A stretch of DNA of 64,000 nucleotides, from the NCBI GenBank assembly GCA_013334765.1, contig JAAXWW010000001.1:39816-103815 (forward strand), written 5' to 3'. The notes under the pieces are model-generated. The model did no database searches. It worked only from the letters and a program-made list of their open reading frames with translations, and had not been told where the DNA came from. This document shows positions 1 to 22,622 of the stretch, piece by piece. This stretch comes from Candidatus Moraniibacteriota bacterium. Lineage in GTDB: Bacteria; Patescibacteriota; Minisyncoccia; Moranbacterales; UBA2206. The first letter of the stretch is position 1, and each line of letters opens with the position of its first letter. The translations under genes were made by a program, and so were the position numbers.

Positions 1-66
1 ATAAGCTGGGGAAGGCTGACTTGTTTCTCTTTTTTTTCTATCATTATGAGTTGTCAATTGGATGAA

Positions 67-585
67 TTATTGCTCTATTTTGCTTCCTTGCGTCATGGCA
101 AGCTTGATGACCTGCTTTTCTTCTTCTGTTAGGGGATATTTTTCCGATTTGCCGCTGGAAATCGATTTCGAATATACCCTGGTCCCTTCGCGAGTATATA
201 GTGAAGTGATTACGACCCCGTTGTTTTTCCCGTCAAGCATGGCGATGGCGAAGCTCTGGTCGCCCCCGACATCTTTGAACGGATTGAAGCGCAGCGACGC
301 GAATTTGTGCAATCCGCTGAATGCCAAACTGTGGATCTGGTTGGATATGTTGTATAGCTCCTGAATATCCCTGTCAAGTATCTTGATGCTTTCCCCGTGG
401 CTCAATAGCAGTTCTTCGAGATTAGGCTGCTTTTTGCCAGTGAATATTTTCCTGAGGATTTCATGGGTGGAATTTATCTTCTTCCTTGAAATGATGATCC
501 AGATGATGAGGACAATAAAAAAAAGGACATTCCCGAGAATGGATATCAGGGCGAGCAGATTCGGATTCATTATTATGCTGGTCAT
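67..585 (-). CDS. hypothetical membrane-anchored protein, N-terminal TM helix; possibly DUF4446-like
   Basis: 172-aa ORF with hydrophobic N-terminus (LLALISILGNVLFFIVLIIWII) followed by a soluble domain. No catalytic motif recognised. Confidence 0.5.
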   Translation of the reverse strand: MTSIIMNPNLLALISILGNVLFFIVLIIWIIISRKKINSTHEILRKIFTGKKQPNLEELLLSHGESIKILDRDIQELYNISNQIHSLAFSGLHKFASLRFNPFKDVGGDQSFAIAMLDGKNNGVVITSLYTREGTRVYSKSISSGKSEKYPLTEEEKQVIKLAMTQGSKIEQ

Positions 586-1018: not shown

Positions 1019-1591
1019 ATGGAGGAGATAAAGAATGTTTCAATAGAGGGGGGTAGCCTCGGAGCTAAATTCATAGATCCTGAAAAAGTGATTGAGAGCT
1101 TGGAAATACTGCCCGGAATGTCCGTTGCGGAATTCGGATGCGGAACCGGATTTTTTGTTTTTCCGGTTTCCAAGAAGGTATCGGAGAGCGGACGCGTGTA
1201 TGCTCTTGATATCCTGAAAGAGAAGCTGGAAGCAATCGAGTCTCAGGCCAAAATAAACGGGATGAGCAACATAATCGTCAAAAGGGCTAATCTTGAGGCG
1301 GTGGGCGGATCGAAGCTGGAAGAAAACAGCATAGATTGGGTTTTTATGGTCAATATGCTTTTTCAAAACAAGCAAAAGGATCTGATTATCGCTGAGGCCA
1401 AGAGGGTCTTGAAGCCGAAAGGCAAGATGCTCATAATCGAATGGAATGGAAATGATTCTTCTTTCGGTCCGGCAAGGGATATAAAGCTTTCCAAAGAGGA
1501 ATTGCTTGCCCTTGGAGAAGATAGCCAGATGGCCTTTATAAAGGACATCGAAATAAGCGATTTCCATTACGGCCTAATATTCGCAAAATGA
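1019..1591 (+). CDS. class I SAM-dependent methyltransferase
   Basis: Motif I VAEFGCGTGFF and a Rossmann-type layout; 190 aa. Confidence 0.75.
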   Translation: MEEIKNVSIEGGSLGAKFIDPEKVIESLEILPGMSVAEFGCGTGFFVFPVSKKVSESGRVYALDILKEKLEAIESQAKINGMSNIIVKRANLEAVGGSKLEENSIDWVFMVNMLFQNKQKDLIIAEAKRVLKPKGKMLIIEWNGNDSSFGPARDIKLSKEELLALGEDSQMAFIKDIEISDFHYGLIFAK

Positions 1592-2949
1592 AAAAGGAAA
1601 TAAAAACAATCCTGTTGGTTTTCTTCGTTTTCGGAACGCTATTGGTTTCCGGATGCGGATGCAAGCAGTCGTCAAACAATTATCGGATGAACCTCGAGGT
1701 GTGGGGTTTTTTGGATGACAGGGAGGCTCTCTCGGCCGTTTTTGACAATTATAAAAAGATAAACAAGAACATTGCTGGGATAACATATAGGAAGCTCTCT
1801 ACTGATACATACAAGAAAGAGCTGATCGAAGCTTTAGCTTCCGGTCAAGGGCCTGATATTTTCATGATCAGCAATTCGTGGCTTCCTAGCTTTCAGAACA
1901 AGCTCGTCTCTGCTCCAGCCGATATCTTCAACGAGCAGACCTATCGGAACAATTTCGTCGATACGGCTTCTGATGACTTCATTTCTCAAGGATCGATTTG
2001 GGCAGCGCCGCTCAGTGTCGATTCCCTGGGTCTCTACTACAATAAGGACATGTTCAATGTTGCCGGGATAACCTCTCCTCCGAAAACATGGAATGAATTC
2101 CTGAGCGATGTCAAGCTGCTGACAAGAGTGGATAGCGACGGGGAGATAACCCAGTCCGGTGTCGCCATGGGCACGGCATACAACATCAATCGTTCGACCG
2201 ACCTGCTTGGCATGCTCATGCTGCAAAGCGGAACGAAGATGTCCAATGAGGATCTCCAAGTGACTTTCAATAGCGATAACGGAAGAAACGCTCTTAATTT
2301 CTATACCCAATTCGCGAAATCAGCTTCTCCCACTTATTCATGGAACCCCAAGATGCATTATTCCATCGACGCTTTCTCAGAAGGCAAGACGGCTATGATG
2401 TTCAATTATTCATGGCACATCCAGACGATCAGGAGCAAATCCCCGAAGCTGAATTTCGCCGTTGCCAAAATCCCCCAATTCTCGGAATCCGCCCCGGTAA
2501 ACTACTCCAATTATTGGGCGATGACCGTCGCTAAGAACAAGATAGCGAGCGTGCCGTCAGGCAATCCGGCTGTTTCCAACGACATTCGCGTCAAGGAAGC
2601 TTGGAAGTTCATCAGATATTTGACTGCCAAGCCGGACGGGACTTTGGCGGCAGCAGATCAAAGCATCGGAAGCGTGACCGATAAGAATTTCGATCCGGCA
2701 GCGACCTATCTTGAAAAGGACAAGAGCCCCGCGGCCAGGAAAGACCTCATCGAAGCCCAGAAGACCGATCCCGATCTCGGCGCGTTCGCTTGGGGAAACC
2801 TGATTGCGAGGAATTGGAAGCAGGCCGATCCTGAATCGGTCGAACTGATAATGAGCGAAATGATCGATCAGGTCAATAAAGGGAATGCCGGCGTCGATGA
2901 GGCGATAAATGCCGCAGTTTCGAAAATAAACAAATCGATATCGAAATAA
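1588..2949 (+). CDS. ABC transporter extracellular solute-binding lipoprotein (sugar-type SBP)
   Basis: Signal peptide plus lipobox (LLVSGCGC). 453 aa with SBP_bac_1-like composition. ATGA overlap with the upstream gene suggests coupling. Confidence 0.7.
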   Translation: MKKEIKTILLVFFVFGTLLVSGCGCKQSSNNYRMNLEVWGFLDDREALSAVFDNYKKINKNIAGITYRKLSTDTYKKELIEALASGQGPDIFMISNSWLPSFQNKLVSAPADIFNEQTYRNNFVDTASDDFISQGSIWAAPLSVDSLGLYYNKDMFNVAGITSPPKTWNEFLSDVKLLTRVDSDGEITQSGVAMGTAYNINRSTDLLGMLMLQSGTKMSNEDLQVTFNSDNGRNALNFYTQFAKSASPTYSWNPKMHYSIDAFSEGKTAMMFNYSWHIQTIRSKSPKLNFAVAKIPQFSESAPVNYSNYWAMTVAKNKIASVPSGNPAVSNDIRVKEAWKFIRYLTAKPDGTLAAADQSIGSVTDKNFDPAATYLEKDKSPAARKDLIEAQKTDPDLGAFAWGNLIARNWKQADPESVELIMSEMIDQVNKGNAGVDEAINAAVSKINKSISK

Positions 2950-2970: not shown

Positions 2971-3723
2971 ATGAAAAAGGGATATTTATTTCTGGGAATC
3001 GTTTTTTCGCTAGGTGTTTTCTTTGGAAGCTTTTCGGTGGCGAAGGCGGCTGAACAATGCTGCATGACATATAACTCTTCCACTGGCTCCTGGGATCTTA
3101 GTAGCGATGTAACTAACTGTACTGGAACAGTAGTTGATTATAGCTGTTCTGGCTCTTCATCAAGTTCCGATGCGTCCAGCGACAGCTCTTCCAGTATGAC
3201 TTTTGCTAATCCCCTCAAATACGATTCCATAAGCGCTTTCCTGACAGCCTTCCTGGAAAACCTGCAGGGGATAGTGGCGACGATCGCGGTTATCTTCATC
3301 ATCATCGGCGGCATCATGTATATGCTTTCAGCGGGAGATCCGAAGATGATTACCCGTGCCAAGGACGCTATTTTCGCTGCCATAATCGGATTAGCAATCG
3401 TTCTAGCTGCTCCGACATTCTTGAAAGAAGTAAGGAATATTCTGGGTGCGAAAAGCAGTTCTTCAGGCGATCAATCTGTCGACTCAGCCCTCAGTCTCCT
3501 GGATATCGCTAACAACGTCCTTACTTTTCTGTTGTCGATTGTCGGTATCCTTGCTATAATATCGATGGTGATTGGAGCGATAATGTATCTGACGGCATAC
3601 GGGGATGAGGACAGGACCAAGACGGGGAAGAAGATCATAACATATTCCCTGATCGGCATAGCGGTTGCGCTGGCCGCGCTCATTCTGGTCCAGCAAGTCG
3701 GGACGCTTCTGGGGAACAGTTGA
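2971..3723 (+). CDS. T4SS-pilin-like (VirB2/TrbC-like) membrane protein, two tandem pilin-like domains, Cys-rich N-terminal region
   Basis: Signal peptide, a Cys cluster (EQCCM..NCTG..YSCSG) and a Ser-rich linker. Two repeats of the TM-hairpin module carry the conserved motif (..MYMLSAGDP..RAKDAIFAAIIGLAIVLAA / ..MYLTAYGDED..GKKIITYSLIGIAVALAA) shared with the next three genes. Confidence 0.6.
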   Translation: MKKGYLFLGIVFSLGVFFGSFSVAKAAEQCCMTYNSSTGSWDLSSDVTNCTGTVVDYSCSGSSSSSDASSDSSSSMTFANPLKYDSISAFLTAFLENLQGIVATIAVIFIIIGGIMYMLSAGDPKMITRAKDAIFAAIIGLAIVLAAPTFLKEVRNILGAKSSSSGDQSVDSALSLLDIANNVLTFLLSIVGILAIISMVIGAIMYLTAYGDEDRTKTGKKIITYSLIGIAVALAALILVQQVGTLLGNS

Positions 3724-3796
3724 TGAAAAAGATAGAATTTGGATAAAAAACAATTTATGCCATGGGCAAGCGCCCATGATCGGAAGGAGGTGTTAT

Positions 3797-4159
3797 ATGA
3801 CGAATAAAACAAAAAAGGTTGCTTATTTCATCGGATCCCTGGCTCTGACTGCTCCTTTTGCTGTTCTTGCCGCCGGTCTCGATCCGACAGCTGGAGGTAG
3901 CACGGGATTGCCGGACAGTTCCCTTACTGATATAGTGAAGAGCATCATGAACTGGCTCCTGATGATGATCGGAGTGTTCGCAGTCATCGGATTCGCTATC
4001 GCTGGAGTGCTGTATCTCACTGCTGCTGGCAATGAGAAGCAAGTCGATAGGGCGAAAAGCGCTATGACCTATTCCATTATCGGAGTTATCGTGGCTATTG
4101 CCGGATTAGTGGCTCTTAAAGTCGCCAATAATATTCTGGGAAGTTCGAACAATTTCTAG
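3797..4159 (+). CDS. T4SS-pilin-like (VirB2/TrbC-like) small membrane protein
   Basis: AGGAGG sits 7 nt upstream of the ATG at 3797. Signal peptide and two TM helices. Motif LYLTAAGNEKQVDRAKSAMTYSIIGVIVAIAG is paralogous to its neighbours. Confidence 0.65.
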   Translation: MTNKTKKVAYFIGSLALTAPFAVLAAGLDPTAGGSTGLPDSSLTDIVKSIMNWLLMMIGVFAVIGFAIAGVLYLTAAGNEKQVDRAKSAMTYSIIGVIVAIAGLVALKVANNILGSSNNF

Positions 4160-4185
4160 CAAGGAAAAACCAAAATAAAAATAAG

Positions 4186-4210
4186 AATCCCCGGAACGGG
4201 ATTTTTATTT
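4186..4210 (+). terminator. rho-independent terminator
   Basis: Hairpin AATCCC-CGGAAC-GGGATT followed by a T-run. Confidence 0.6.
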
Positions 4211-4303
4211 TTACCTAAAAGCAGTCGGGTATATTAGCAAAAAGAGAGGCATGATTTGTCGCTGATACTATCCGTGGTATAATATATTCATCAAATCTAA
4301 ATA

Positions 4304-4705
4304 ATGAATAAAAAAATGAAAAACAAAAATGGGATGCGGTTTCTTGGTTTGGCTGTTTCTTTGCCTATGGGATTGCTGTCGGCTTTTGATGCCGCGAAAG
4401 CCTATGGAGAAACCTATGGCGGTTGGAGCATTGATGATATGACTGGCTATGGGCTTCCAGATTCTACCATTACGCAAATAATCATCGGTATCCTTTCTTG
4501 GCTGCTGGCTATCTTCGGGGTTCTGGGCGTTGTCGGATTCCTTGTCTCGGGAGTCATGTATCTGATTTCTTTCGGCGATGATGATATGATGAAGAGGGCT
4601 AAGAATGGGATGATGTATTCTATCTACGGAATAATAGTCGGTCTTGCCGGACTGGTTGTCATCAGGGCGGCATACACTCTTTTGAATGGAGGAGCTTTCT
4701 TTTAA
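4304..4705 (+). CDS. T4SS-pilin-like small membrane protein
   Basis: Signal peptide, two TM helices, motif MYLISFGDDDMMKRAKNGMMYSIYGIIVGLAG; paralog of its neighbours. Confidence 0.6.
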   Translation: MNKKMKNKNGMRFLGLAVSLPMGLLSAFDAAKAYGETYGGWSIDDMTGYGLPDSTITQIIIGILSWLLAIFGVLGVVGFLVSGVMYLISFGDDDMMKRAKNGMMYSIYGIIVGLAGLVVIRAAYTLLNGGAFF

Positions 4706-4715
4706 ATCAGTGAAT

Positions 4716-5066
4716 ATGAAAAAAACAAAAAAGATAATCCTGACATTATCCTTGGCGGCGCTTCTTTTTTCCTTGAAGGCTCACGCCATAGATTATCCGG
4801 AAGAGACCGGCCTTCCCGAGGGGACCGATATCCAAGGGATTCTGGAAAACATCCTCAGCTGGCTGCTGGGGATAGTCGGAACGCTGGCGCTCATCAGTTT
4901 TGTCATTTCCGGCATGCAGTATTTTCTTGCGACCGGAGACGACAAGGCGATGGGGACAGCCAAGAAAACGATGATGTATTCGATTATCGGCATCATCGTG
5001 GCGCTTTCCGGCTTCATCGCTATTCAGGCAATAAATTCGCTTCTGACGGGAGGGTATTCAGTGTAG
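4716..5066 (+). CDS. T4SS-pilin-like small membrane protein
   Basis: Start at MKKTKKII. Signal peptide ending LKAHA. Motif MQYFLATGDDKAMGTAKKTMMYSIIGIIVALSG. This is the fourth tandem paralog. Confidence 0.6.
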   Translation: MKKTKKIILTLSLAALLFSLKAHAIDYPEETGLPEGTDIQGILENILSWLLGIVGTLALISFVISGMQYFLATGDDKAMGTAKKTMMYSIIGIIVALSGFIAIQAINSLLTGGYSV

Positions 5067-5090
5067 CTTTGTTTTTATGAAAAAAAGAAA

Positions 5091-5126
5091 GGCGCTTGCG
5101 GAACTGATGTCCGCAAGCGCCTTTTG
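5091..5126. terminator. bidirectional intrinsic terminator between convergent genes
   Basis: Perfect 12-bp stem GGCGCTTGCGGA..TCCGCAAGCGCC followed by TTTTGT. It lies between the + gene ending at 5066 and the - gene ending at 5137. Confidence 0.7.
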
Positions 5127-5136
5127 TGATGCCTCC

Positions 5137-6309
5137 CTACTTCTTGAAAATCTGAAGCGGAGAGCATGTTCCCTGACCGCATCTTAGTCTGATGCACATC
5201 TTATTTTCCAGAGAAAAAGAAGGTCCTTTCTTGAAGCTCCTCCCTTCGTCAAAAGAAACTTCTGCGAAGTAAGGGTTTAGGATGTAATTTCCTGGCTGAA
5301 GATCACAGACAACCGTTGCATAGCCATTTTCCAATTTCATGGGCAGGCTTTTCACGGGATCTTCATTTTTTTGATTAACATCCGATTTTGCTTTTTCGGC
5401 AGATGCTTTATCCGAAAGAGCCTGTTGCTCCTTTTGCCATCGATGATATTCATCGACAGTCATATTTTTCTGCGCTGCGGAAATCGCATCGCTATATTCA
5501 GCAGGAAGCTTTTTGCCTGGATTGGCCTTTTGCCATCCTAATGCTTCAGCCAATAATTGGTTATTAGCCGCTTCGGTCTGTTGTGATTGAACATCGCGGA
5601 TCTTGTTTATCAGCTGAGCTGTTGAACGCGGAGTGAAGCTGAGACTATTCAATCCGAGGAACTCCCTTGCTTGAGGAAATCCTATAGATACGCCGGATAG
5701 TATGTAAAACATCAGCGTAGCCGTTATTATCCATCGGAGCAAAACTTTGGACAATGACCATTTCCCAAGCAATGCTAATACTGTTGTTGTCATTAATACT
5801 ATCGTCATGACAACGCTGGAGCTGGCAAAAGCCTCCAGTCCGCATAGATAGTTTTGAAATATGACCAGGAAAAGCAATTGGATCGCTAATACCCACCTGA
5901 TCATGTCGAGGTATAATCTCGTTGCTGGATTGTCTAGGATCCCCGTTGCGGTTGCTGTTTTCGAACTGCCGAACAGCTGAAACGCTGCGCCTGAAAACTC
6001 GATAACTTCGCCGGCAATATGTACCTGCAGTGTCCTCCATGAAAAAACGAGACGCACTGCTGATGCGGCAACTACGGCCACGATGATAACCGATGACCAG
6101 CAAAACAACCTCGCCGATCCACCGATCATAAAGAAATGAAAGCTAGCAATAGTGGCCATTCCCAGTAGGGTTGCCATTGCTACAAAAAGCATTGCCCAAA
6201 ACAGTCTAGCTGTGAATCCCTTAAGCATGCTGCGCAGGGAATTAATCATATATCCAAACATAGCCTTCTCCTCAGAGATTCGCGTTAGGAGCGGAAAAGC
6301 TTTTTCCAC
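5137..6309 (-). CDS. polytopic membrane protein with hydrophilic C-terminal domain (hypothetical)
   Basis: 390 aa. Several hydrophobic helices in the N-terminal 230 aa, then a Q/A-rich linker and a Cys-containing C-terminal domain. Confidence 0.55.
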   Translation of the reverse strand: MEKAFPLLTRISEEKAMFGYMINSLRSMLKGFTARLFWAMLFVAMATLLGMATIASFHFFMIGGSARLFCWSSVIIVAVVAASAVRLVFSWRTLQVHIAGEVIEFSGAAFQLFGSSKTATATGILDNPATRLYLDMIRWVLAIQLLFLVIFQNYLCGLEAFASSSVVMTIVLMTTTVLALLGKWSLSKVLLRWIITATLMFYILSGVSIGFPQAREFLGLNSLSFTPRSTAQLINKIRDVQSQQTEAANNQLLAEALGWQKANPGKKLPAEYSDAISAAQKNMTVDEYHRWQKEQQALSDKASAEKAKSDVNQKNEDPVKSLPMKLENGYATVVCDLQPGNYILNPYFAEVSFDEGRSFKKGPSFSLENKMCIRLRCGQGTCSPLQIFKK

Positions 6310-6914
6310 CAGGGCCGATTTCTGAATTCTTCATCATAATCCCTGGTTGTGTCACTGGCATCCTTCAACATCTGTTCGATCAATGCCTTGAATCCAGCGA
6401 CGTTTTCACACAGGAATGGGAGAACGGATTCCTTCATGAGCCTTTGGAATTTTTCTAGGCTAGTGGACGAATCCACTGCTCCACCAACTGCAATTATATA
6501 CAATATGACCTGTGCCTTATTGGAACAACGCATTCCGATTTCTCTTAGAATCGTTATTCCGGCTCTGACTTTCCCAGGCTCAACATCGTCCTTATCCTTG
6601 AAGGTTACAAGGAGTCTAAAACTCCTTGCGAAATGAGTTCCTTTTCTTGCATCAAAGTATGCCAGATCTAGCATGGCATCCAGCAGCATCTCTTTTTGGT
6701 AGCTGGACAGTCCGCACTCGGCAAGATCTTTCGCGAAAAAGTTTTCATCTTCCCACGATTTGCCGTCGACGAGTCTCTGCTTTATTGCCTCTTGAATCGG
6801 GCTACTGAGCCCTAGGGTTGTATACATCTTTTTGGCTCCGTCCCAAATCTTCTTCAGGAGGACAAAAAGGGCACCCTCGGCCAACGCCTCAGTGAAAAAA
6901 CCAATTATGGACAT
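6285..6914 (-). CDS. hypothetical protein, probably co-transcribed with the downstream membrane protein
   Basis: 209-aa ORF overlapping the next gene by 25 nt. No recognisable motif. Confidence 0.5.
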   Translation of the reverse strand: MSIIGFFTEALAEGALFVLLKKIWDGAKKMYTTLGLSSPIQEAIKQRLVDGKSWEDENFFAKDLAECGLSSYQKEMLLDAMLDLAYFDARKGTHFARSFRLLVTFKDKDDVEPGKVRAGITILREIGMRCSNKAQVILYIIAVGGAVDSSTSLEKFQRLMKESVLPFLCENVAGFKALIEQMLKDASDTTRDYDEEFRNRPWWKKLFRS

Positions 6915-7235: not shown

Positions 7236-8537
7236 ATGCCAAGAAAAAAGGTACAGAAGGAAGAAGAGAGCCAGCCAGGAAAGATGGGTGATTTCGGTTC
7301 AGCTATAACCCAGATCTGCGAAGAGAAAGGGATCTCCAAAGATCGCGTGATCGAAACCATCGAAGCGGCTCTGGCTGCCGCATACAAGAAAGACTATGGA
7401 AAGAAAGGGCAGAACATCCGCGCCGCTTTCAACGAAGTCGACGGCGGAACCAAATTCTATTTAGTCAAAGAGGTCGTTGATGAGACCATGCGGGAATTCG
7501 TTGAGGAAGAAGAAATAGAGGAAGGACAAGAACAATCTGAGAGTGGGCATGTTCATGTTGCGGCAGAGCCCGCCTCCATCCCGCTTAGCGGGACTACGGC
7601 GGGTGAAAACGAGGAAGAAAAACTGCCTCGCTTCAATCCTGAGCGAGATCTGACCATGGACGAAGCCAAGGAAATCAAAGCCGATTCCAAAGTCGGAGAC
7701 ATAATCGAAATCGAACTTCCTGAAGAGAAGGATTATGGCCGAGTTGCAGCACAGACTGCCAAGCAGGTCATTATCCAAAGGATCCGCGAAGCCGAAAGGG
7801 ATTCCATGTATGACGAATACAAGAACAAGGAAGGCGAAATAGTGAGCGGCATCGTTCAAAGAGTCGAAGGCAGGAATGTTTTTATTGATCTCGGAAAATC
7901 TGTCGGCGTGCTCTTCCCTAATGAGCAGATGGAGAGGGAAAACTACCGCATCGGGCAAAGAGTGAAGGTATATCTCATGAAAGTCGATTCAGGTAGCAAA
8001 GGTCCCGGCATAACGCTGAGCCGCGTGCATCCCGAAATGGTCAAGCGCCTTTTCGAGCTTGAAGTCCCTGAGATATTCGCTGGAACAGTCGAAATCAAAT
8101 CCATCGCGAGAGAAGCCGGAGAGCGCACCAAGATTGCCGTCTCGTCGACTGAAGAAGGAATCGATCCGATCGGATCATGCGTCGGGCAGAAGGGAACGAG
8201 AGTGCAGGCCATTATCGACGAGCTGGGCGGGGAGAAGATCGATATTGTGCTTTGGAATGATGACATCTCGAAATTCATTTCAGCTGCGTTGAGCCCTGCC
8301 AAAGTCCTTAATGTCAACATAAACGAAGACAAGAAAGAAGCTATCGTGAACGTTCCTGAAGACCAGCTGTCGCTTGCCATCGGAAAACGCGGACAGAACG
8401 TCCGGCTGGCCGCCAAGCTGACCGGATGGAAGATCGATATTTCCGGCGTGGGAGCGGATGAAAGCAAGACTGAAGAAGAAGCTGAAACTGAAGCAGGATC
8501 CGATGCTCAGGAAGCGGAAGATTCCACTGAAGAATAA
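7236..8537 (+). CDS. nusA: transcription termination/antitermination factor NusA
   Basis: N-terminal NusA domain, S1 and two KH domains (GQRVKVYL.., IGSCVGQKGTRVQAIIDELGGEKIDIV, AIGKRGQNVRLAAKLTGWKIDI) and an acidic tail. The start may be the internal M at 7284. Confidence 0.9.
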   Translation: MPRKKVQKEEESQPGKMGDFGSAITQICEEKGISKDRVIETIEAALAAAYKKDYGKKGQNIRAAFNEVDGGTKFYLVKEVVDETMREFVEEEEIEEGQEQSESGHVHVAAEPASIPLSGTTAGENEEEKLPRFNPERDLTMDEAKEIKADSKVGDIIEIELPEEKDYGRVAAQTAKQVIIQRIREAERDSMYDEYKNKEGEIVSGIVQRVEGRNVFIDLGKSVGVLFPNEQMERENYRIGQRVKVYLMKVDSGSKGPGITLSRVHPEMVKRLFELEVPEIFAGTVEIKSIAREAGERTKIAVSSTEEGIDPIGSCVGQKGTRVQAIIDELGGEKIDIVLWNDDISKFISAALSPAKVLNVNINEDKKEAIVNVPEDQLSLAIGKRGQNVRLAAKLTGWKIDISGVGADESKTEEEAETEAGSDAQEAEDSTEE

Positions 8538-8547
8538 TAACTACTTG

Positions 8548-9489
8548 ATGTCAAAAGATATGGCAAAGACTATTATTATAGGGCACAAAAATCCTGACAC
8601 CGATTCGGTTGTCGCGGCTTTGGCTGCTGAAAGATACTATAAGGAAGTCCTCAAGATAGACGCGAAGGCTTATAGTGCCGGAGAGATCAACAACGAGACC
8701 AAGTTCGTTCTGAAAACGCTTTCATTGAAGGCCCCGAGCCTCTTGAAAGCTGTCAAAAAAGATGACGCAGTTGTCCTGGTCGATCATAACGAATCCGGCC
8801 AGATCGCAGACGGGATATCCGCCTCTCAGATCGCGGGACTGATCGATCATCACAAGATTATTTTCGAAACCGAGCGCCCGATATCCATTCGCGTGGAACC
8901 GATCGGAAGCACCTCATCCCTGATTGCGAAGATGTATTTCGAATCAGGCAGGAAGGTATCCGCAAGCCTTGCCAAACTGCTTCTTTCGGGAATATTGTCT
9001 GACACGCTGGGACTATCCGGACCGACTACGACCGATGAGGACAGGAAAATCGTGAAAGCACTCAATAAGATCGCCAATATCGATATCAAGGAATTCGTCA
9101 GCGAGCTGTTCGCTGCCAAATCCAGCCTCAAAGGGATTTCGATCGAGACGCTGATCACCCAGGATTACAAACTGTTCGAAATGGGGCGCAGCAAGGTCGG
9201 TATCGGAGTCTGGGAGACCACCGATCCTGAAAGCGTGAATGCCGAGAAGGCGAAAATCCTCAAACTACTTTTCGAAAAGAAATTCAAAGAGAATCTGGAT
9301 TACATCTTCTTCTTCGTGGTGGATATCATCAAGCAGGGAAGCGTCCTGTATCTCATAAGCGATAACGAAAGCGAGCTTGCCAAGAAGGTTTTCAAGGGAA
9401 AGATCGAGGATAACGGAATGGTTCTTGAGGGAATAGTTTCCAGAAAGAAGCAGATGGCTCCGGTTCTGACCGCGGCATTAAGCAAATAA
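8548..9489 (+). CDS. ppaC: DHH-family phosphoesterase, most like family II (Mn-dependent) inorganic pyrophosphatase
   Basis: IIIGHKNPDTDSVVAALA N-terminus, DHN and DHH motifs (VVLVDHNE, GLIDHH) and a DHHA2-like C-terminal region. Confidence 0.7.
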   Translation: MSKDMAKTIIIGHKNPDTDSVVAALAAERYYKEVLKIDAKAYSAGEINNETKFVLKTLSLKAPSLLKAVKKDDAVVLVDHNESGQIADGISASQIAGLIDHHKIIFETERPISIRVEPIGSTSSLIAKMYFESGRKVSASLAKLLLSGILSDTLGLSGPTTTDEDRKIVKALNKIANIDIKEFVSELFAAKSSLKGISIETLITQDYKLFEMGRSKVGIGVWETTDPESVNAEKAKILKLLFEKKFKENLDYIFFFVVDIIKQGSVLYLISDNESELAKKVFKGKIEDNGMVLEGIVSRKKQMAPVLTAALSK

Positions 9490-15421: not shown

Positions 15422-15492
15422 CGGGATGTGGTGTAGTGGTAGCACGATTGGTTTGGGACCATTTAGCCCGAGTTCGACTCTCGGCATCCCGA
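15422..15492 (+). tRNA. tRNA-Pro (anticodon TGG)
   Basis: Acceptor CGGGATG/CATCCCG with discriminator A. D-arm GTGT/GCAC. Anticodon loop TTTGGGA. T-arm CCGAG-TTCGACT-CTCGG. One U-U mismatch in the anticodon stem. No encoded CCA. Confidence 0.6.
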
Positions 15493-15539
15493 CAGGGGTT
15501 TGTGTTTATTGAAAAATGGTTTTTGGGTTTCTATGAAAG

Positions 15540-15680
15540 AAGTCGAGCTAAGGCTCGGCGAAAGTCTCCTTCGCGACCATCAGCGGGCTTTGCCCGCGTG
15601 CCGTCGCTGTGATGAGACGAAGGCCTCCTTCGCGCCTTCCTAGCGGGCTTTGCCCGCTGGAAGCCGCTACGGCGGCTGAA
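15540..15680. repeat. tandemly duplicated ~60-bp structured spacer between tRNA-Pro and tRNA-Gly
   Basis: Two copies of the hairpin GCGGGC-TTT-GCCCGC (15583-15597 and 15643-15657). Each is preceded by a CTCCTTCGCG-containing hairpin (GCGAA..TTCGC / CGAAGG..CCTTCG). Confidence 0.5.
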
Positions 15681-15681
15681 A

Positions 15682-15756
15682 GCGGGTGTCGTATAGTGGC
15701 TATTATATCAGCCTTCCAAGCTGAGGAGGGGGGTTCGATTCCCCCTACCCGCTCCA
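15682..15756 (+). tRNA. tRNA-Gly (anticodon TCC), CCA encoded
   Basis: Acceptor GCGGGTG/TACCCGC. Anticodon stem TCAGC/GCTGA with loop CTTCCAA. T-arm GGGGG-TTCGATT-CCCCC. Discriminator T followed by CCA. Confidence 0.75.
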
Positions 15757-17510
15757 AGGACAATTTCTTGCCCCGAAACACCTAGAACAGATTGAAGAAT
15801 ATCTTGGGGCAACTTCAATTTAATATGAAGACGGAAAGGGATCATTTGATCCTTTTTTCGTTTCCCAGCGATGATGTCGGCATTCTCTACTGGTCGAGAA
15901 TATACAACGATTTCATCAATGAGAGAATGCAGTAGCGTGTAAGTATCAGCTCTGTTTTCTGCTATGTTGTCGAGAGTATGGATATATTTTTGAGAAAACA
16001 GCTCCAGAGTCTTTTCATAACCCTGCGAAAGTGAATTTTCGGAAATTCGGCGGTCAATTTCTTCAATATCTTTTTTATATTTTATTTCAACATCATTCAA
16101 TTCCTTATATCGCCTGCCAAGTTCTGTTCCATCTATTACGCTCAAAGAGTGTTGCTCTCTCAATCTCTCCTTACGATTTGGAAGAGCATTTATCAATTTA
16201 GCCATTCCTTCACGTTGCATGCTTAACTGCTTCAATGCGACTCTTGATGATTGCAGTTTTCTTTGATGATTATAGGTTGCAAGAGGATTTGCCAAAAGCC
16301 TTTTACTGAAGCCTACTATATACTCTTCTATTTCTTTAGCAGGCAGTGGTATAGTATGACAAGTTGTTGAATACTTGCTAGGGTTTTTCTTTCCGCACTT
16401 ATATGAATATGTGAATTTATTACTGCCTTTTTTAAGTTCCTTTCTATCGCCAACCCAGTGCATCATTCCGGTTTTTTCTTCAGGGTTGTGGCATGCGTCG
16501 CAAGTCAAAAGGCCACTAAGAAGATAGATGTGTCCACTTTTTGTTTTTTTCTTTTCGTGTTTGGAAGACTTCAACAAACGTTGCGTTTTTTCAAATGTTA
16601 AAGGGTCGATAATTATTGGGAATTGAAATTCTCCAAGTTTCCATTCTTCTTTTGAAAGTTGTTTGCCTTTTTTCTTCTTATCATAATAGTATTTTCCGAT
16701 ATAAATTTCGTCTTGCAAAATCAATCTTATTCTTTCGGGTCTCCAAAAATTGTGCGGATTTTTCTTTTTTGTTTCACCGCTTTTTTTCTTGTGCAAAATT
16801 GCAGAGGCTTCTGGCGAAGGGTTTCCTGCGGAAGTCAGATGAGCTGCAATTTCATATGCACTTTTTTTCTCATTCAAAAACATATTGAAAATAAGCCTTA
16901 CAATAACTGCTTCCTCTTCAAGAATTTCCAAGTGCTTGTCCTTATTTTTAATGTATCCAAATACTGCAAACGAACCCATTGGGATCCCACTTTTTATTGC
17001 TTGGTTTCTGCCATCCTGAGTGCGTTGCTTTATGGTCTCAACTTCAAGCTCTGCTATTATTCCGACAATGCCAAAAATTGCCTTACCAAAAGGTGTTGTG
17101 GTGTCTATGCTTTCATTTGCTGAAATAAATTTAACACCAATTTCATCAAAAAAATCAACGATATTCAAAAGGATTTTTAGTCTTCTGGCAAAACGATCTA
17201 TTTTATATACTGCTACAACATCAAATGGCCTGTTGTCTTTCGGTGCCATTGTTAAATCCTCCATGAGCTGTGCAAAGGCTGGTCTTTCTTCGATGGGAAT
17301 TGTTCCGCTAACTCCATCGTCAATATAGATATGCTTTTCTCCTGCAAGGCTCCAAACTCCACTGCCATCTTCAAGTTTACCTTTTGACTTAATAAGATTC
17401 AAAAGGGCTTCTTTTTGCATATCTAAGCCATATTTTTCAGCCTGTTCATCGGTTGATACTCTAATATAAAGAGCGACTCTTAGGCTTTCTGGATTTGTAT
17501 TTGTTTGCAT
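15708..17510 (-). CDS. large serine recombinase (phage-type serine integrase)
   Basis: N-terminal resolvase catalytic domain (RVALYIRVSTDEQ.., catalytic Ser context). A 600-aa protein with a Cys-containing recombinase/zinc-ribbon region. The 3' end overlaps tRNA-Gly by about 49 bp. Confidence 0.85.
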   Translation of the reverse strand: MQTNTNPESLRVALYIRVSTDEQAEKYGLDMQKEALLNLIKSKGKLEDGSGVWSLAGEKHIYIDDGVSGTIPIEERPAFAQLMEDLTMAPKDNRPFDVVAVYKIDRFARRLKILLNIVDFFDEIGVKFISANESIDTTTPFGKAIFGIVGIIAELEVETIKQRTQDGRNQAIKSGIPMGSFAVFGYIKNKDKHLEILEEEAVIVRLIFNMFLNEKKSAYEIAAHLTSAGNPSPEASAILHKKKSGETKKKNPHNFWRPERIRLILQDEIYIGKYYYDKKKKGKQLSKEEWKLGEFQFPIIIDPLTFEKTQRLLKSSKHEKKKTKSGHIYLLSGLLTCDACHNPEEKTGMMHWVGDRKELKKGSNKFTYSYKCGKKNPSKYSTTCHTIPLPAKEIEEYIVGFSKRLLANPLATYNHQRKLQSSRVALKQLSMQREGMAKLINALPNRKERLREQHSLSVIDGTELGRRYKELNDVEIKYKKDIEEIDRRISENSLSQGYEKTLELFSQKYIHTLDNIAENRADTYTLLHSLIDEIVVYSRPVENADIIAGKRKKDQMIPFRLHIKLKLPQDILQSVLGVSGQEIVLGAGRGNRTPLLSLEG

Positions 17511-17750
17511 AAAGTTATAACAAGTAAAAGGTACGAATAGGTATAAGTAACGGAGGGAGGCATTTTTTGTATTTATAGCTTAACCGCCTTTGCCTAAGAA
17601 ATTGAAAAATGAATATAAAAAACAGCCAAAAAGACTGACGGGATAAAGACTAAAATTTTATAGTTTTTCCAAAACATTCAATTACAACTAAAATATAAAC
17701 CTACTTTTAAAGTAAGACTTATCTTAGATAAATGCAAGACCCCACAGATC

Positions 17751-18374
17751 TTAATACTTTATGATTTTGTTAATGGCAGCAGAAGAATCATCAACACCTT
17801 TTAAATAAATTGAAAATTGATGAAATCCAGTGTTGGCATTTTTAATATATTCTCCCACAAAGTGCTTGCCGACATAAGCAGAATCCGCATTCGTAGCATT
17901 AGCAATATTTGGCTGTATCGTTGCTGATTTTTTGTCCGTATGAATAAAAATAAAAGCACTGCGTTCATTTTGCATATCATCTTTGATTGTTTGCCCCAAA
18001 GCTGTCATATCGTCAAAATTGAGATATTTAGGATCAATGACTATCCTTTCGCCAGTTCCGCCGTCGGGAATGCTCCATTTTTGAACCACTTCGTAAGGAA
18101 TTTTTTTGCTGGCCTGGGTTATAGGATTGCTGCTTTTATTATTGTTTGCTTGTGGCCGATTGGGTTGGCTTTTTGTTGCAGCTATAATTGAAGATATTAT
18201 TGGAATCCCAATCAAAATAACCAAAATTAGGACAAGCCAAGGCAGACAACCTTTTTTCTTTTTTATTACCACTTCCATTGGCTGCTGATTTTTTCCGGAA
18301 AGATCGCTTCCGCAATGTTTGCATTTGATTGCTTCGTCCTGAATTTCTTCAGAACAAAAAGAACACTTTTTCAT
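17751..18374 (-). CDS. zinc-ribbon membrane protein (hypothetical)
   Basis: N-terminal CxxC-x12-CxxC ribbon (CSFCSEE..CKHCGSD), one TM helix and a 140-aa extracytoplasmic domain. Confidence 0.5.
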   Translation of the reverse strand: MKKCSFCSEEIQDEAIKCKHCGSDLSGKNQQPMEVVIKKKKGCLPWLVLILVILIGIPIISSIIAATKSQPNRPQANNNKSSNPITQASKKIPYEVVQKWSIPDGGTGERIVIDPKYLNFDDMTALGQTIKDDMQNERSAFIFIHTDKKSATIQPNIANATNADSAYVGKHFVGEYIKNANTGFHQFSIYLKGVDDSSAAINKIIKY

Positions 18375-18933
18375 AGACTTTTCGTTTAATTTTTAAAGTG
18401 CTGGTCGGGATACACAAAACCCCGTGCCAGCTAGGTCTTGCGACCCTATATCCGTTTCCAGATATAGCCCAATCACGAGTTGCTGAACGCGGGGTTCAGT
18501 GTCGTGATTGGGTCTTGTATGCCATACCGTAAAATTTTACTTCTACGGGTTAGGCAAATTAAATTGTAACCTTATTATGCCTTATAACTGCCGAAAAGGC
18601 AAAATTTGGCTATTTTTTGACTGCTAAGAAAGGAAATGCTCTAATATGGGCAATCCTACCAAATTACTGATTAGCTCCCTTAAGGCCTAGTCAGGGAGTC
18701 TAGGAGTGAAAAACAGACGGTAATTTTTATCCAAACAAATAGTTTATTTTTGTCCGCTCGTGTCCGTTTATTTTTTTCCAAATCTGTCCCTCTTGATCCG
18801 TTTTTATTTTATACTAAATTAGGCTTATCTTGGCTCAACTCAGGGATTATTAGCACATTTTACTAAATTGAATTATTTTACTGTCCAAATGAACAAAGGA
18901 ACATAAAAAAATGATGTAAAACTGGATAAAAAT

Positions 18934-18980
18934 AGGGCGGAAGTTTTTTCTGACAACTCTGTCAAATTGACTTCCGCCCT
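18934..18980 (-). terminator. intrinsic terminator for the 19024..19467 gene (nested hairpin)
   Basis: On the - strand the 11-bp stem AGGGCGGAAGT/ACTTCCGCCCT, with an inner 5-bp stem TGACA/TGTCA, is followed by ATTTTTAT. It lies 44 nt downstream of the stop. Confidence 0.55.
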
Positions 18981-19023
18981 ATAATATTTACAAATATGAT
19001 GTCTGCTATACTGGCAACATCGT

Positions 19024-19467
19024 TTAGTCTTTGGATTTATCAAATAGAAAGTGGAGCAGCTGTTCATTTTCCTCCTCCATTGAACTGATTGCTACACTAA
19101 GGGGCTGTCTTTTTGGACCAAGATCTATAACAGGATTAACTGAACCATAAAAATAAAAACCTATATTATTATCAGACTTTTTCTTGCTAGCATCCTTTCT
19201 AAAATAAACCTCAAGACCTTCTTCTTCAATTTTGTGTTTTTTAGCAAAATTATCGAATGTCTTAATTATAAAATCAGAAAATTCCAGTTGAGTTATGCCC
19301 CCTTCTAAACTTATAACAAATCTTCTTCTAGTCTTAGGTTTAAGATTATCAGATGAAAAATTCACCAGTTCTTCGTTAGAACTATATTTTTCAATAGCTT
19401 CACTGGTATCATTTGGTTTTTTATTATCTAAATGCTTACTATTTCGACTGTGTTGCGTTTTTGCCAT
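19024..19467 (-). CDS. hypothetical protein
   Basis: 147-aa ORF, K/E-rich, no recognised motif. Confidence 0.45.
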   Translation of the reverse strand: MAKTQHSRNSKHLDNKKPNDTSEAIEKYSSNEELVNFSSDNLKPKTRRRFVISLEGGITQLEFSDFIIKTFDNFAKKHKIEEEGLEVYFRKDASKKKSDNNIGFYFYGSVNPVIDLGPKRQPLSVAISSMEEENEQLLHFLFDKSKD

Positions 19468-19543
19468 AAAAGTGACGATTTTATGCGATTTGATTATTAA
19501 CGCCTATACGGTGAATTTCTTTGTCTATATTGTAGCATATCAA

Positions 19544-19598
19544 GATTAAATTGTATTTTTCATTGATATTTATATTGTGGGGTAGAAATTTGCCGATC
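19544..19598. repeat. ~55-bp direct repeat, copy 1 (second copy at 21447..21500)
   Basis: AAGATTAAATTGTATTTTTCATTGATATTTATATTGTGGGGTAGAAATTTGCCG versus AAGACTAAATTGTATTTTTCATTGATATT-ATATTTCGGGGTAGGAATTTGCCG. Confidence 0.7.
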
Positions 19599-19761
19599 CA
19601 AAAATTTCTCATTTTGCAACCTAACGAAGCCTAACTTTTTTAATATAAAAATTCTATTTTAATTGTATTATGTCATACAACGTCAAGATATTATTGGAAT
19701 GTTGATTTTTTAGTATAGCTGTGCTTTATTAGATTAAGGTCTTGGTAAACACATTATAATA

Positions 19762-20550
19762 ATGTATAATAATAATATGGCAAAAGCGAAAAAAGAAACA
19801 AGAAAGAAATCTTTTAAATACGGAAAAAACTACCTTTCTAAGGTAATTTTGAGGTTGGATTTTGATAAAATAGAATTGGGATCACTCGAAAATTTTCATA
19901 ATGATGAGTTAAAGAAATTCTTTCCATTATTTGCTGAGAAAAAAGATCTTGAAATTGGTCTTTCGGGAGATTTAGTTTCTAATAAAATAAGTCAGACCAG
20001 AAATGAATCCGTATCCTATGTCTTTGAAAACTCGGAGAAAACGAAACGCTTTAGAGTTGGAGAAAGATATGTTTTTATTGAATATGACAAGTATAGTAAT
20101 TCCGAAGAATTATACAAAGATATAAAAGTAGTTATTGATAGATTTATTTTAACTTTTGGTGTAAAAACAATAAACAGGTTGGGATTAAGGTATATAAATG
20201 AGATAAAATTGAAAGAACCGAATGCTTTAGATTGGAAAAATTACATAAATAAAGATCTGCTAGGTGGTTTAAATTTTTCCAAAAATGAAATTCTTTCCCG
20301 TTCTTTAAGTCAGCTCGTTTTTAAAAAAGACAAGGGTGATATGTCTTTTACCTATGGAGTATTTAATAAAGAATTTCCAAGCGAGATAAACATTAAAGAG
20401 TTCATACTTGATTTTGATTGCCATTCAATCTTGCCTTTTGAGCTTTTAGAAGAAAACATTCTAAATAGAATAGAACTATATCATTCTCATATAGAGGACT
20501 TATTTGAAAAGTGTATAACGCAGAAATTTCGTGATTTTTTAAATAAATAA
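19762..20550 (+). CDS. hypothetical protein (island cargo)
   Basis: 262-aa ORF with a basic N-terminus and an internal GLRYIN segment. I half-recall this signature from an uncharacterised protein family but cannot confirm it. Confidence 0.5.
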   Translation: MYNNNMAKAKKETRKKSFKYGKNYLSKVILRLDFDKIELGSLENFHNDELKKFFPLFAEKKDLEIGLSGDLVSNKISQTRNESVSYVFENSEKTKRFRVGERYVFIEYDKYSNSEELYKDIKVVIDRFILTFGVKTINRLGLRYINEIKLKEPNALDWKNYINKDLLGGLNFSKNEILSRSLSQLVFKKDKGDMSFTYGVFNKEFPSEINIKEFILDFDCHSILPFELLEENILNRIELYHSHIEDLFEKCITQKFRDFLNK

Positions 20551-20563
20551 CTAGCTAGCTATT

Positions 20564-20761
20564 ATGTTAGGAAAATCATCTTCTGAAAATTACAGAGATA
20601 TCTTTGAAGATAAGGCTGATGAATACTCCAAAAAAGATAATTCTGAAACAAGGGATTTTTCTGGAACCATAAATTTATTTACATCTGGAACAAACAAAGA
20701 GAGGTATGTAATTAGAAAGGCTACTGTTGAAAAACATCTTTATGTTCGAAAGTCAAATTAA
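20564..20761 (+). CDS. small ORF (65 aa), overlaps the start of the next ORF in another frame; possibly the N-terminal part of a frameshifted gene
   Basis: ORF track only. It overlaps 20727..21374 by 35 nt (20727-20761), or 20 nt if the downstream gene starts at 20742. Confidence 0.3.
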   Translation: MLGKSSSENYRDIFEDKADEYSKKDNSETRDFSGTINLFTSGTNKERYVIRKATVEKHLYVRKSN

Positions 20762-21374
20762 GAAAAAGTATCAGATTTGTGGCATAAGAACTTGCCAGGG
20801 TGACATTCTTAGGGATGTCACTATTGCATTTGGGCTAGAATTGAGTGATAGCAGTGAGGGCGAAAGTGAAATTGAATTAGAACATAGGTATTATAACTAT
20901 GCAGTAGTATTGAGTCAGGACTGTGATTTAAGTAGTGATTATAATGAGAGAAATAAAAATGCAGAAATCAAGGAAAAAATAAAAAATAACGAACTGGAAG
21001 AAGAAAAAGCGATTATAAGCAATGATAAGTATTTGCCTGCTATTTTAATATGCCCAGCTTATTTATTATCTGATTTTGTAAACGGATCGCATATAACTTC
21101 TTGGAGTATGAATAGTGAGCTAAAAAACGAAAATAATCAAAAAAAGTTAAAAAGTAATAATGAATTTAAACGATATCATTACATAAGAGGCGATAGTGAT
21201 CTTGGGATACCCGAGTTAGTATTGGATTTCAAGCACTTTATGTCGGTGCCAAGGGATACTTTATATAAAATACATAATCAAGTTTATATAGCCACAATAA
21301 GCGAATTGTTCCGAGAGGAGTTGTCTCAGCGATTTTCAAACTATATTTCAAGAATAGGCTTACCAGAAATTTGA
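20727..21374 (+). CDS. hypothetical protein (island cargo)
   Basis: 215-aa ORF; alternative start at 20742 (MFESQ..). No recognised domain. Confidence 0.45.
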   Translation: MKNIFMFESQIKKKYQICGIRTCQGDILRDVTIAFGLELSDSSEGESEIELEHRYYNYAVVLSQDCDLSSDYNERNKNAEIKEKIKNNELEEEKAIISNDKYLPAILICPAYLLSDFVNGSHITSWSMNSELKNENNQKKLKSNNEFKRYHYIRGDSDLGIPELVLDFKHFMSVPRDTLYKIHNQVYIATISELFREELSQRFSNYISRIGLPEI

Positions 21375-21446
21375 GAGCTTGTTAGTTTCTGATTAAGTTA
21401 TTTGTGCCTATTCGCTGAATCTTCTTGTCTAAATCACAACAAATAA

Positions 21447-21500
21447 AGACTAAATTGTATTTTTCATTGATATTATATTTCGGGGTAGGAATTTGCCGCC
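21447..21500. repeat. ~55-bp direct repeat, copy 2
   Basis: See copy 1. It lies immediately upstream of the long palindrome. Confidence 0.7.
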
Positions 21501-21549
21501 CTCAGAAAACAAAAAACAGCCCTTAACGGGCTGTTTTTTGTTTTCTGAG
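21501..21549. terminator. 22-bp perfect inverted repeat / bidirectional terminator-like hairpin upstream of the R-M cassette
   Basis: CTCAGAAAACAAAAAACAGCCC-ttaac-GGGCTGTTTTTTGTTTTCTGAG. A degenerate direct copy lies at 23790..23830. Confidence 0.6.
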
Positions 21550-21748
21550 CGGCATCTATCTATGGCTGGGATACGGGGTCAAAATATGAGAAATAAAAAT
21601 GCGTTGGGTAATTCTGGCGGCAAAAGTCTCAATGATTGTAGGTTAGTTGAAAGATGCCTTTAATTGTGAATTTTTTGATTTTGATGATAAGATAAACATA
21701 GGAAATCATTATAAAAAGCATAGCTTATCCCTTTAGAAGAAAGATCAT

Positions 21749-22585
21749 ATGGCTAAAAAAACTCAATCAAAAAGATTAACGAATCAGCATAAAAAATCTC
21801 AAGGCGTGGTTGGTATATTTGGAAATGAAGCAAGGTCGCATGATATAACAGTTGGTAAGATTTCACATCTTGTAACCGAACAGCTTGAAAAGGAATTTCC
21901 TCGATTATCTTTTAGATATAGAACGGGTATAAAAAAGAAAGAAATAAACGAAGCCTTAAAGAAAGTTGATTCAGAATTAGGGCAAACCATTTTTGTATTA
22001 AATTCAAGCATTAAGCCTGATGGAGGAATAATAGAAGTGAAAGACGATAATGGTATTTGGAGAGTAGTACTCGTAACGGAAGCTAAACATCAAGGAAAAG
22101 ACATTGAAAATATCCAAAAAGGAAATCTGGTTGGCAAGAATAACGATCAAGATTTGATGGCTGCTGGCAATGCAATAGAAAGATCGCATAAAAACATATC
22201 AGAAATTGCCAACTTTATGCTGCATGAATCCCATTTTCCTTACATCTTATTTCTGGAAGGATCAAATTTTATTACTGAAACCATTTCAATTAAAAGACCT
22301 GACGGAAGAGCAGTTACCCTTGATTATAACTCAGGCATGCTGAATAGATTAGACAGATTGACTTCTGCGAATTATGGAATGCCAATTAATACCAATTTAT
22401 GCAAAAATAAATTTGTTAAGCATAAAGATAAAACAATTATGCTTCAAGCAGCTTCGATATATACACAAGGCAATGGAGGAAAATGGGATAAAAAAGAAAT
22501 GTTCGACATTATGGTGGAAACTTCAAAAGTCTCTCTTCAGGTACTGGGAAGTGAAATATTTAAACAAATAACCAAGCGCAAATAA
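21749..22585 (+). CDS. ecoRIR: type II restriction endonuclease, EcoRI family (predicted GAATTC specificity)
   Basis: 278 aa, alignable from memory along its whole length with R.EcoRI: SQGVVGIFG, LSFRYR, EINEALKK, SSIKPDGGIIEVKDD, EAKHQGKD (the PD..D/ExK active site), DQDLMAAGNAIERSHKNISEIANFML, SHFPY.LFLEGSNF, NSG.LNRLDRLT.ANYGMPIN, IMLQAASIYTQG. Confidence 0.85.
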   Translation: MAKKTQSKRLTNQHKKSQGVVGIFGNEARSHDITVGKISHLVTEQLEKEFPRLSFRYRTGIKKKEINEALKKVDSELGQTIFVLNSSIKPDGGIIEVKDDNGIWRVVLVTEAKHQGKDIENIQKGNLVGKNNDQDLMAAGNAIERSHKNISEIANFMLHESHFPYILFLEGSNFITETISIKRPDGRAVTLDYNSGMLNRLDRLTSANYGMPINTNLCKNKFVKHKDKTIMLQAASIYTQGNGGKWDKKEMFDIMVETSKVSLQVLGSEIFKQITKRK

Positions 22586-22622
22586 TCAAAACCAAGAGAT
22601 TTATTAATTTTTTAAATATAAT

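Follow-up and report, generated by a model that had tools for sequence, protein, structure and literature searches.

In this study, we analysed a 64-kb stretch of DNA (the window) from a Candidatus Moranbacteria bacterium (Patescibacteria; ultra-small, Candidate Phyla Radiation) and found on its + strand four co-oriented pilin open reading frames (ORFs), pil1 to pil4, at positions 2971-5066, which together encode five copies of one pilin module. The four neighbouring genes were confirmed as a VirB2-type pilin array of the kind already described in this phylum. They are best explained as the VirB2/TrbC-type pilin set of a chromosomal type IV secretion system (T4SS) of Candidatus Moranbacteria, a reading to which we assign a probability of about 75%. 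In Patescibacteria, a pilin array has been defined as 2-11 pilin genes in tandem or with one non-pilin gene between them (PMC12102498), and here the four genes are directly adjacent. The divergence of the modules (26-50% identity over 80 shared columns) likewise falls into the range reported for such arrays (mean ~25%, maximum 54%). Divergent VirB2-like pilin arrays in the phylum have been published before (Wang 2023; Quinonero-Coronel 2025), and the original prediction, which was made from the letters of this DNA and claimed four tandem VirB2/T4SS-pilin-like paralogs, essentially arrived at the published reading. Candidatus Moranbacteria/Moraniibacteriota or Parcubacteria/Patescibacteria group is also the label of the most similar proteins and of almost every one of 80 related loci, which were drawn from species-representative genomes.

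The family assignment is carried by the Pfam profiles. All four proteins score above the curated gathering cut-off of PF18895 (T4SS_pilin, 26.6 bits), and pil1 and pil4 also exceed that of PF04956 (TrbC/VirB2, 27.9 bits; scores in Table 1), while this second family gave no match for pil2 and pil3 in the Pfam scan. The best NCBIfam family is the Mbov_0395 pilin-like conjugal transfer family (NF045849), which is reached by pil1 (40.8 against a threshold of 40); pil2, pil3 and pil4 stay under its cut-off with 22-31 bits. Homologs from Moranbacteria carry the names pilin or TrbC/VirB2. When the five modules, including the two halves of pil1, were aligned, they were found to have in common the motif Y..(A/S/T)xG(D/N)......(A/G)K, which lies in the inter-helix loop. 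Hydropathy analysis indicated two long hydrophobic helices per module and an N-terminal hydrophobic segment, which in pil3 falls below the threshold of 1.6. Together with the helices of an AlphaFold (AF2) model of pil1, this fits the topology that had been claimed, a signal peptide followed by two transmembrane helices per module.

The array is tied to a secretion machine because orthologous arrays in related genomes adjoin genes for PrgI, a TraC-like protein and a VirB4-type ATPase. In eight loci (L027, L047, L051, L052, L053, L070, L071 and L076), the gene for PrgI (VirB3-like; 39.6 bits versus 27) directly follows the array, in the order solute-binding protein, single pilin, double pilin, PrgI and a 229-aa protein, whose homolog in the locus L084 carries a PF26593 TraC-like match on record. 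The next gene in seven of the eight encodes a 607-aa VirB4-like ATPase (P-loop_TraG ~100 bits, AAA_10, DUF87), and a small membrane protein comes after it in six of these loci. In their source records, homologs of the ATPase bear the name "type IV secretory pathway VirB4 component" or TraC. The exception is L071, where PrgI and the TraC-like protein follow the array and no VirB4 homolog was found in the locus sequence examined; L071 is also the one genome among six Moranbacteria genomes carrying the pilin locus that is not VirB4-positive in Table S1 of PMC12102498. Array and VirB4 lie together on a 37,474-bp contig in L070, and a contig size of 17,755 bp common to one pilin match (P0095) and one VirB4 match (P0213) points to probable adjacency there as well. 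Furthermore, L084 and L085 harbor full T4SS clusters in which one or two pilin genes occur together with a LysM-CHAP hydrolase, TrbL_3 (VirB6-like), PrgI, a TraC-like protein, VirB4 and several unknowns. The cluster of L084 ends beside the genes for IF2 and DUF4446, both on the - strand. Since DUF4446 is also the first gene of the window, a T4SS cluster could be located just beyond the left edge of the window.

Two side observations concern these machine genes. The VirB4-type ATPases (P0121-P0240) are 75-94% identical among the best 120 matches and thereby far more conserved than the pilins. Within the L084 cluster, a gene at 8211-8600 (+), between an unknown 521-aa gene and PrgI, has matches on record to 23S_rRNA_IVP and bAvd, an accessory family of diversity-generating retroelements.

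Several observations weigh against the assignment of the four genes to a T4SS. As the original prediction had noted for VirB4 and VirD4, the window contains no partner ATPase: every ORF of at least 350 aa in the 64 kb was accounted for, and neither VirB4 nor VirD4 nor a relaxase was among them. The sole FtsK-family protein is the chromosomal FtsK with its gamma domain, and tblastn of Moranbacteria T4SS proteins against the window gave a best E of 0.86. The array lies 3 kb from the left edge, so that this absence says little about the left side. In most related loci, no T4SS machine gene was present within the flanks examined (up to 10 kb), and for the genome of the window the partner ATPase is assumed. 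Comparing fold and sequence with solved pilins was uninformative, since thousands of structures contain a matching helical hairpin. Overall confidence is moderate for the AlphaFold model of pil1 (pLDDT 67.6), which leaves the N-terminal head unmodelled, and the putative signal peptide cleavage sites (AKA/A, LAA/G, AKA/Y and AHA/I) were judged by eye and hydropathy only. Finally, reviews treat a T4SS pilus of Patescibacteria as a possibility and not as an observation (PMC12857230, PMC11665869); pilus assembly by the four proteins is likewise inferred.

Since the nearest named families are TrbC/VirB2 and the pilin-like family of a Mycoplasma integrative and conjugative element (ICE), the four genes might also be thought to encode the pilins of a conjugative plasmid or integrative element that serves DNA transfer. 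A mobile island with a serine recombinase is indeed present elsewhere in the window (15.7-24 kb). However, this island lies 10 kb off and carries a restriction-modification system and no transfer genes, and relaxase, coupling protein and VirB4 were not found in the window. The GC content of the array is that of the chromosome, and its flanks are housekeeping genes conserved in ~80 genomes. In addition, few Patescibacteria encode a relaxase (109 homologues in 103 of 3,035 genomes; PMC12102498). We therefore regard a conjugative origin as highly improbable; from the phrase "conjugative TrbC/VirB2-type pilins" of the original prediction, the pilin type is retained and the conjugative element is not. 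The low-GC island itself was considered as the owner of the pilins and rejected, as it encodes a recombinase and an EcoRI-type restriction-modification pair.

The neighbourhood of the array is that of a core chromosome. The remaining window encodes NusA, trigger factor, ClpP, RNase Y, RpoB/RpoC, FtsK, RecA, EF-G, EF-Tu, a ribosomal protein cluster and SecY. For synteny analysis, ORFs were called in two contigs that had been found via exact proteins and in the 80 loci, and were scanned with the module hidden Markov model (HMM) and with the flanking proteins of the window. The pilin locus is chromosomal and syntenic in ~80 Moranbacteria genomes, with the conserved order IF2 (-), DUF4446 (-), methyltransferase, solute-binding protein, pilin array, a variable stretch, NusA, (DHH), trigger factor and ClpP. 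The number of pilin genes per locus ranges from 1 to 9 and is mostly 4 or 5. In loci with one double pilin, each pilin was assigned to the most similar paralog of the window. Counted from the double pilin, the gene at position +1 most resembles pil2 in 47 of 49 loci, that at +2 pil3 in 32 of 43 and that at +3 pil4 in 30 of 40. Because the paralogs keep their own orthologs at fixed positions of the array, pil1 to pil4 form an ancestral cassette of distinct parts.

This bears on the possibility that the paralogs are major pilins that can replace one another and are maintained for antigenic or host-range variation, an idea put forward for the VirB2 paralogs of Bartonella and Anaplasma and also suggested for Patescibacteria. 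Switching between paralogs would then match different host surfaces or evade recognition. Their low identity, comparable to the 25% average of published arrays (PMC12102498), and the variable array size would be in line with such a role, and separate transcription units could permit differential expression. In the closest relative (L001), pil1 and pil3 are 77% and 78% identical to their orthologs in the window and thus evolve faster than the flanking housekeeping genes, which range from 90 to 97% (NusA 93%, ClpP 97%). However, pil1 and pil3 are the only ones to do so; pil2 (92%) and pil4 (90%) are as conserved as the housekeeping genes. Moreover, positional orthologs across an order-level group indicate fixed, specialised parts and not recent duplicates, and no repeats or recombination substrates were seen, with no search made for them. 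We consider variation by interchangeable pilins unlikely. The original prediction had taken the strong diversification among the four as a sign of surface exposure and selection; as judged from the positional orthologs, the divergence between the paralogs is ancient paralogy, and a division of labour fits better than recent diversifying selection. At larger distances, pilins are 40-58% identical where NusA still shows 73-77%.

The first gene of the cassette, pil1, harbors two module copies, as had been proposed: Pfam T4SS_pilin matches it in two stretches, and the module HMM finds two domains (aa 68-163 and 168-249, E ~1e-30 each). The AlphaFold model, which was built on 32 orthologs, has four long helices (87-119, 124-157, 176-208 and 213-248) with pLDDT values of ~78-85. 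The FxNP motif that directly precedes the helices of module A is invariant in the 32 orthologs (F78, N80 and P81). The cysteine cluster and poly-Ser linker that had been noticed in front of the modules were also recovered (Table 1). The N-terminal head of pil1 contains four cysteines versus six in its nearest relatives, which makes it, by sequence, a trimmed version of the head of these relatives.

The description of pil1 as a fusion is correct with regard to the two modules, but the fusion is not peculiar to this genome. In a profile scan that covered 1.84 billion representatives (clusters at 50% identity), 12,880 proteins matched the module at E<=0.001 and 301 clusters at E<=1e-30, and exactly one two-module gene is present per locus in 80 of 84 related loci. 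By this distribution, the two-module pilin is an ancient conserved subfamily, the head of which is variable and mostly Cys-rich. We collected 241 two-module proteins from homolog searches. In these, the double module is located at the extreme C terminus (median of 1 residue beyond it), behind an N-terminal head of 2-751 residues (median 100). The long heads of the relatives matched no Pfam domain. Because the head cysteine counts peak at 6, 12 and 18, are even much more often than odd (168 vs 42; 31 heads are without cysteine) and grow with head length (r 0.75), it is tempting to speculate that the heads are built from a repeatable disulfide-bonded unit of about six cysteines. Further multiplication is seen in the 552-aa relative P0343, which has six T4SS_pilin modules in one chain (Pfam 235.9 bits, 6 stretches); pilin modules can therefore be chained well beyond two.

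The constant C-terminal position of the double module behind heads of such different length, and the six fused modules of P0343, which would be odd for a filament subunit, raise the question of whether the T4SS_pilin module is a mere membrane anchor for extracellular heads. Such an anchor would work independently of a T4SS, perhaps together with the upstream solute-binding lipoprotein, and most Moranbacteria arrays are indeed embedded in housekeeping genes, with the solute-binding protein gene close upstream and VirB4 located elsewhere. However, the three single-module pilins pil2, pil3 and pil4 have almost no head to display. In addition, arrays are contiguous with PrgI and further machine genes in the eight loci described above, pilins are found inside the T4SS clusters of L084 and L085, and both pilin and T4SS genes are essential in S. 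epibionticum. A function as mere anchor is therefore doubtful and, in our view, has little chance of being right.

If the four genes are the pilin set of a T4SS, each pilin would be exported by Sec (SecY is encoded in the window), cut after an AxA-type site and retained as an N-out/C-out membrane hairpin whose conserved GD/N...AK loop points to the cytoplasm. Because known VirB2/TraA topology suggests that the module is N-out/C-out, a head-to-tail fusion of two modules would be topologically allowed. A VirB4-type ATPase encoded elsewhere would then pull the subunits out of the membrane and assemble a surface filament or conduit, which would serve host-cell contact or exchange and not conjugation. 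Potentially, pil1 acts as a covalent dimer of pilins, with the Cys-containing head and the Ser-rich linker exposed on the outer side of the cell. It might be a specialised subunit that is present in few copies and functions in adhesion or at the tip, or else as an initiator. The best conserved paralog, pil2, which follows the double pilin in most arrays, would be the likeliest bulk subunit. In a more specific and tentative version of this idea, which we consider less likely than not, the covalent dimer would be plugged into the filament or its base and would display a modular disulfide-rich head made of units with about six cysteines (~30-750 residues in relatives). The two-module pilin would thereby be the host-recognition subunit and replace the missing VirB5-type tip adhesin. 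If true, the tight coupling of the two-module pilin to the solute-binding lipoprotein gene would hint at uptake from the host.

Patescibacteria make up a large share of the uncultured bacteria and apparently live on other cells. In Southlakia epibionticum, the pilin array is essential for epibiotic growth (PMC10633639; PMC12857230). Arrays are known from the T4SS cluster of S. epibionticum ML1 (SEML1_0006-0019) and from the "Sec secreted array" of Nanosynbacter lyticus TM7x (PMC10633639; PMC12102498). Quinonero-Coronel et al. (2025) searched 3,035 Patescibacteria genomes with PF18895 and PF04956 and found VirB2-like pilins in 1,948 VirB4-positive assemblies, 1,135 of which have them close to virB4, and 441 arrays of 2-11 pilin genes in 383 assemblies (mean identity 25%, maximum 54%). 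The arrays were suggested to help adaptation to host strains, and the T4SS of Patescibacteria was described as generally lacking a relaxase (PMC12102498). According to a 2025 review, it is unique among monoderms in its potential to elaborate pili and the only Gram-positive-type T4SS with pilin genes (PMC12857230). Another review states that the T4SS is essential for epibiotic growth in one tested species and that its role is "completely unknown" (PMC11665869). The locus described here leaves this published picture of the Patescibacteria T4SS unchanged. A fixed four-part pilin set with conserved order predicts a filament of specialised subunits, and for host recognition the obvious candidate is the two-module subunit with its head, of which each genome has a single one.

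The Moranbacteria array resembles the other arrays of the phylum in its Pfam families (PF18895/PF04956), its tandem small two-helix proteins with Sec signals, its chromosomal location without relaxase and the low identity of its members. In contrast to them, it belongs to the class Paceibacteria, whereas published arrays are most abundant in Microgenomatia and Saccharimonadia. It also lies outside a T4SS cluster, at a fixed housekeeping site behind a solute-binding lipoprotein gene, and one of its pilins has two modules and a Cys-containing head. The survey of PMC12102498 makes no mention of fused pilins, Cys-rich heads or a solute-binding protein neighbour, and we did not find the two-module Cys-headed pilin described in the literature searched, to which access was limited and in which the Pfam name T4SS_pilin occurs in just two papers. 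With VirB2 of Agrobacterium tumefaciens and TrbC of RP4, the proteins have in common the signal peptide, two hydrophobic helices and a short charged loop, and pil1 and pil4 pass the cut-off of the TrbC/VirB2 family. However, the host here is a monoderm, and the set comprises several paralogs and a tandem two-module form. Relatives have a machine of the Gram-positive (MPF-FATA-like) type that includes PrgI and a TraC-like protein, and no VirB5-type tip protein was seen. Several divergent VirB2 copies side by side are also found in Bartonella and Anaplasma phagocytophilum, where variation for host interaction has been proposed (PMC12102498); those systems target host cells and belong to Gram-negative intracellular bacteria, whereas here the paralogs are ancient and have order-wide positional orthologs. 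The Mycoplasma ICE protein Mbov_0395, the cut-off of whose family is reached by pil1, is likewise a pilin-like two-helix protein of a Gram-positive-type T4SS in a wall-less or monoderm setting. Unlike the present locus, which is conserved and chromosomal, Mbov_0395 resides on a mobile conjugative element, and pil2 to pil4 stay below the threshold of its family.

The coordinates of the array and of its transcription signals are given in Table 1. For pil2, the TTG at 3665 had been taken as the start; the ATG behind a GGAGG is most likely the true one, and the TTG would add an unlikely 44-residue extension. The start of pil4 is most likely the one listed, with a typical MKKTKK signal start; if the gene began at 4686, in the same frame, it would run into pil3. 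The tandem arrangement of the four genes holds, but a second hairpin and a promoter-like site divide the array. The hairpin between pil2 and pil3 is flanked by an A-run and a U-run and was flagged in the terminator scan. The promoter-like site before pil3 has 10 of 12 consensus matches and an extended -10 element; it is a pattern match, from a scan that yielded no more sites than expected by chance. Because these two elements split the array, it is probably organised in two transcription units, (solute-binding protein)-pil1-pil2 and pil3-pil4, as judged from pattern matches. The hairpin after pil4, which was common to the convergent gene on the - strand, looks like a bidirectional intrinsic terminator: none of 200 shuffles folded as well. 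On the - strand the hairpin has a clean U-tract, whereas the one on the + strand (UUUUGUG) is weaker.

Table 1. Features of the pilin array and its immediate neighbourhood, with window positions.
Feature	Position (nt)	Residues (aa)	Strand	Remarks
DUF4446	67-585			first gene of the window
SBP_bac_1 solute-binding lipoprotein	1588-2949		+	Pfam SBP_bac_1 105.7 bits; lipobox-like VSGC
pil1, two-module pilin	2971-3723	250 aa	+	PF18895 73.1 bits in 2 stretches; PF04956 40.6 bits
pil1 signal peptide	2971-3048	1-26	+	predicted cleavage after AKA
pil1 Cys-containing head	3049-3147	27-59	+	C30, C31, C50, C59
pil1 Ser-rich linker	3148-3195	60-75	+	
pil1 module A	3196-3441	76-157	+	opens with the invariant FxNP motif
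pil1 inter-module linker		158-175	+	
pil1 module B	3496-3720	176-250	+	
pil2, single-module pilin	3797-4159	120 aa	+	PF18895 38.7 bits; GGAGG ~8 nt before ATG
Internal palindromic hairpin, terminator-like	4176-4213			between pil2 and pil3; dG -17.2 kcal/mol, z -4.8
Promoter-like site before pil3	4256-4283		+	TTGTCG, 16 nt spacer, TG-TATAAT
pil3, single-module pilin	4304-4705	133 aa	+	PF18895 39.4 bits
pil4, single-module pilin	4716-5066	116 aa	+	PF18895 46.0 bits; PF04956 29.9 bits
Strong hairpin after pil4	5087-5125		both	16-17 pairs (15 in the terminator scan); dG -29.2 (+) / -27.5 (-) kcal/mol, z ~-6.8; common to the convergent - strand gene 5137-6309

The solute-binding lipoprotein gene is a conserved neighbour of the array and not a pilin gene. 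It ends 21 nt upstream of pil1, and its product is 53% identical to the syntenic ortholog in L003. In related loci, the gap between this gene and the first pilin gene is at most 100 nt in 50 of 69 cases (median 28 nt). Pattern scans found no promoter- or terminator-like site between it and pil1, with which it is probably co-transcribed. The gene has no adjacent permease or ATPase gene.

Downstream of the array, two genes on the - strand were considered as hidden T4SS parts such as VirB6. The one at 5137-6309 encodes a polytopic membrane protein of 390 aa, the C-terminal domain of which contains cysteines, and the one at 6285-6914 a 209-aa protein. They gave no Pfam match and were treated as a variable region. 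No homolog was found at the same place in L001 or L003, and elsewhere only matches of 22-27% were obtained. The stretch between array and NusA varies even among close relatives; in L001 it contains a Band_7 protein.

Further features of the window lie at a distance from the pilin locus. The low-GC island (15422-24000; 0.31-0.35 versus ~0.47 elsewhere) lies directly after tRNA-Pro and tRNA-Gly and carries a large serine recombinase gene (15708-17510, -) that overlaps the 3' end of tRNA-Gly, a LOOT RNA (RF03000; 18433-18556, -; 79.9 bits), and genes for an EcoRI-type endonuclease (21749-22585) and its methylase (22623-23723). By these features, the island resembles a mobile element that has integrated and brings a restriction-modification system. 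Between EF-G and EF-Tu, a locally GC-rich stretch (0.547) contains an AbiEii-type nucleotidyltransferase toxin gene (46729-47403, +), followed by a gene for an 891-aa protein with an FGE-sulfatase-like domain (47729-50404, +).

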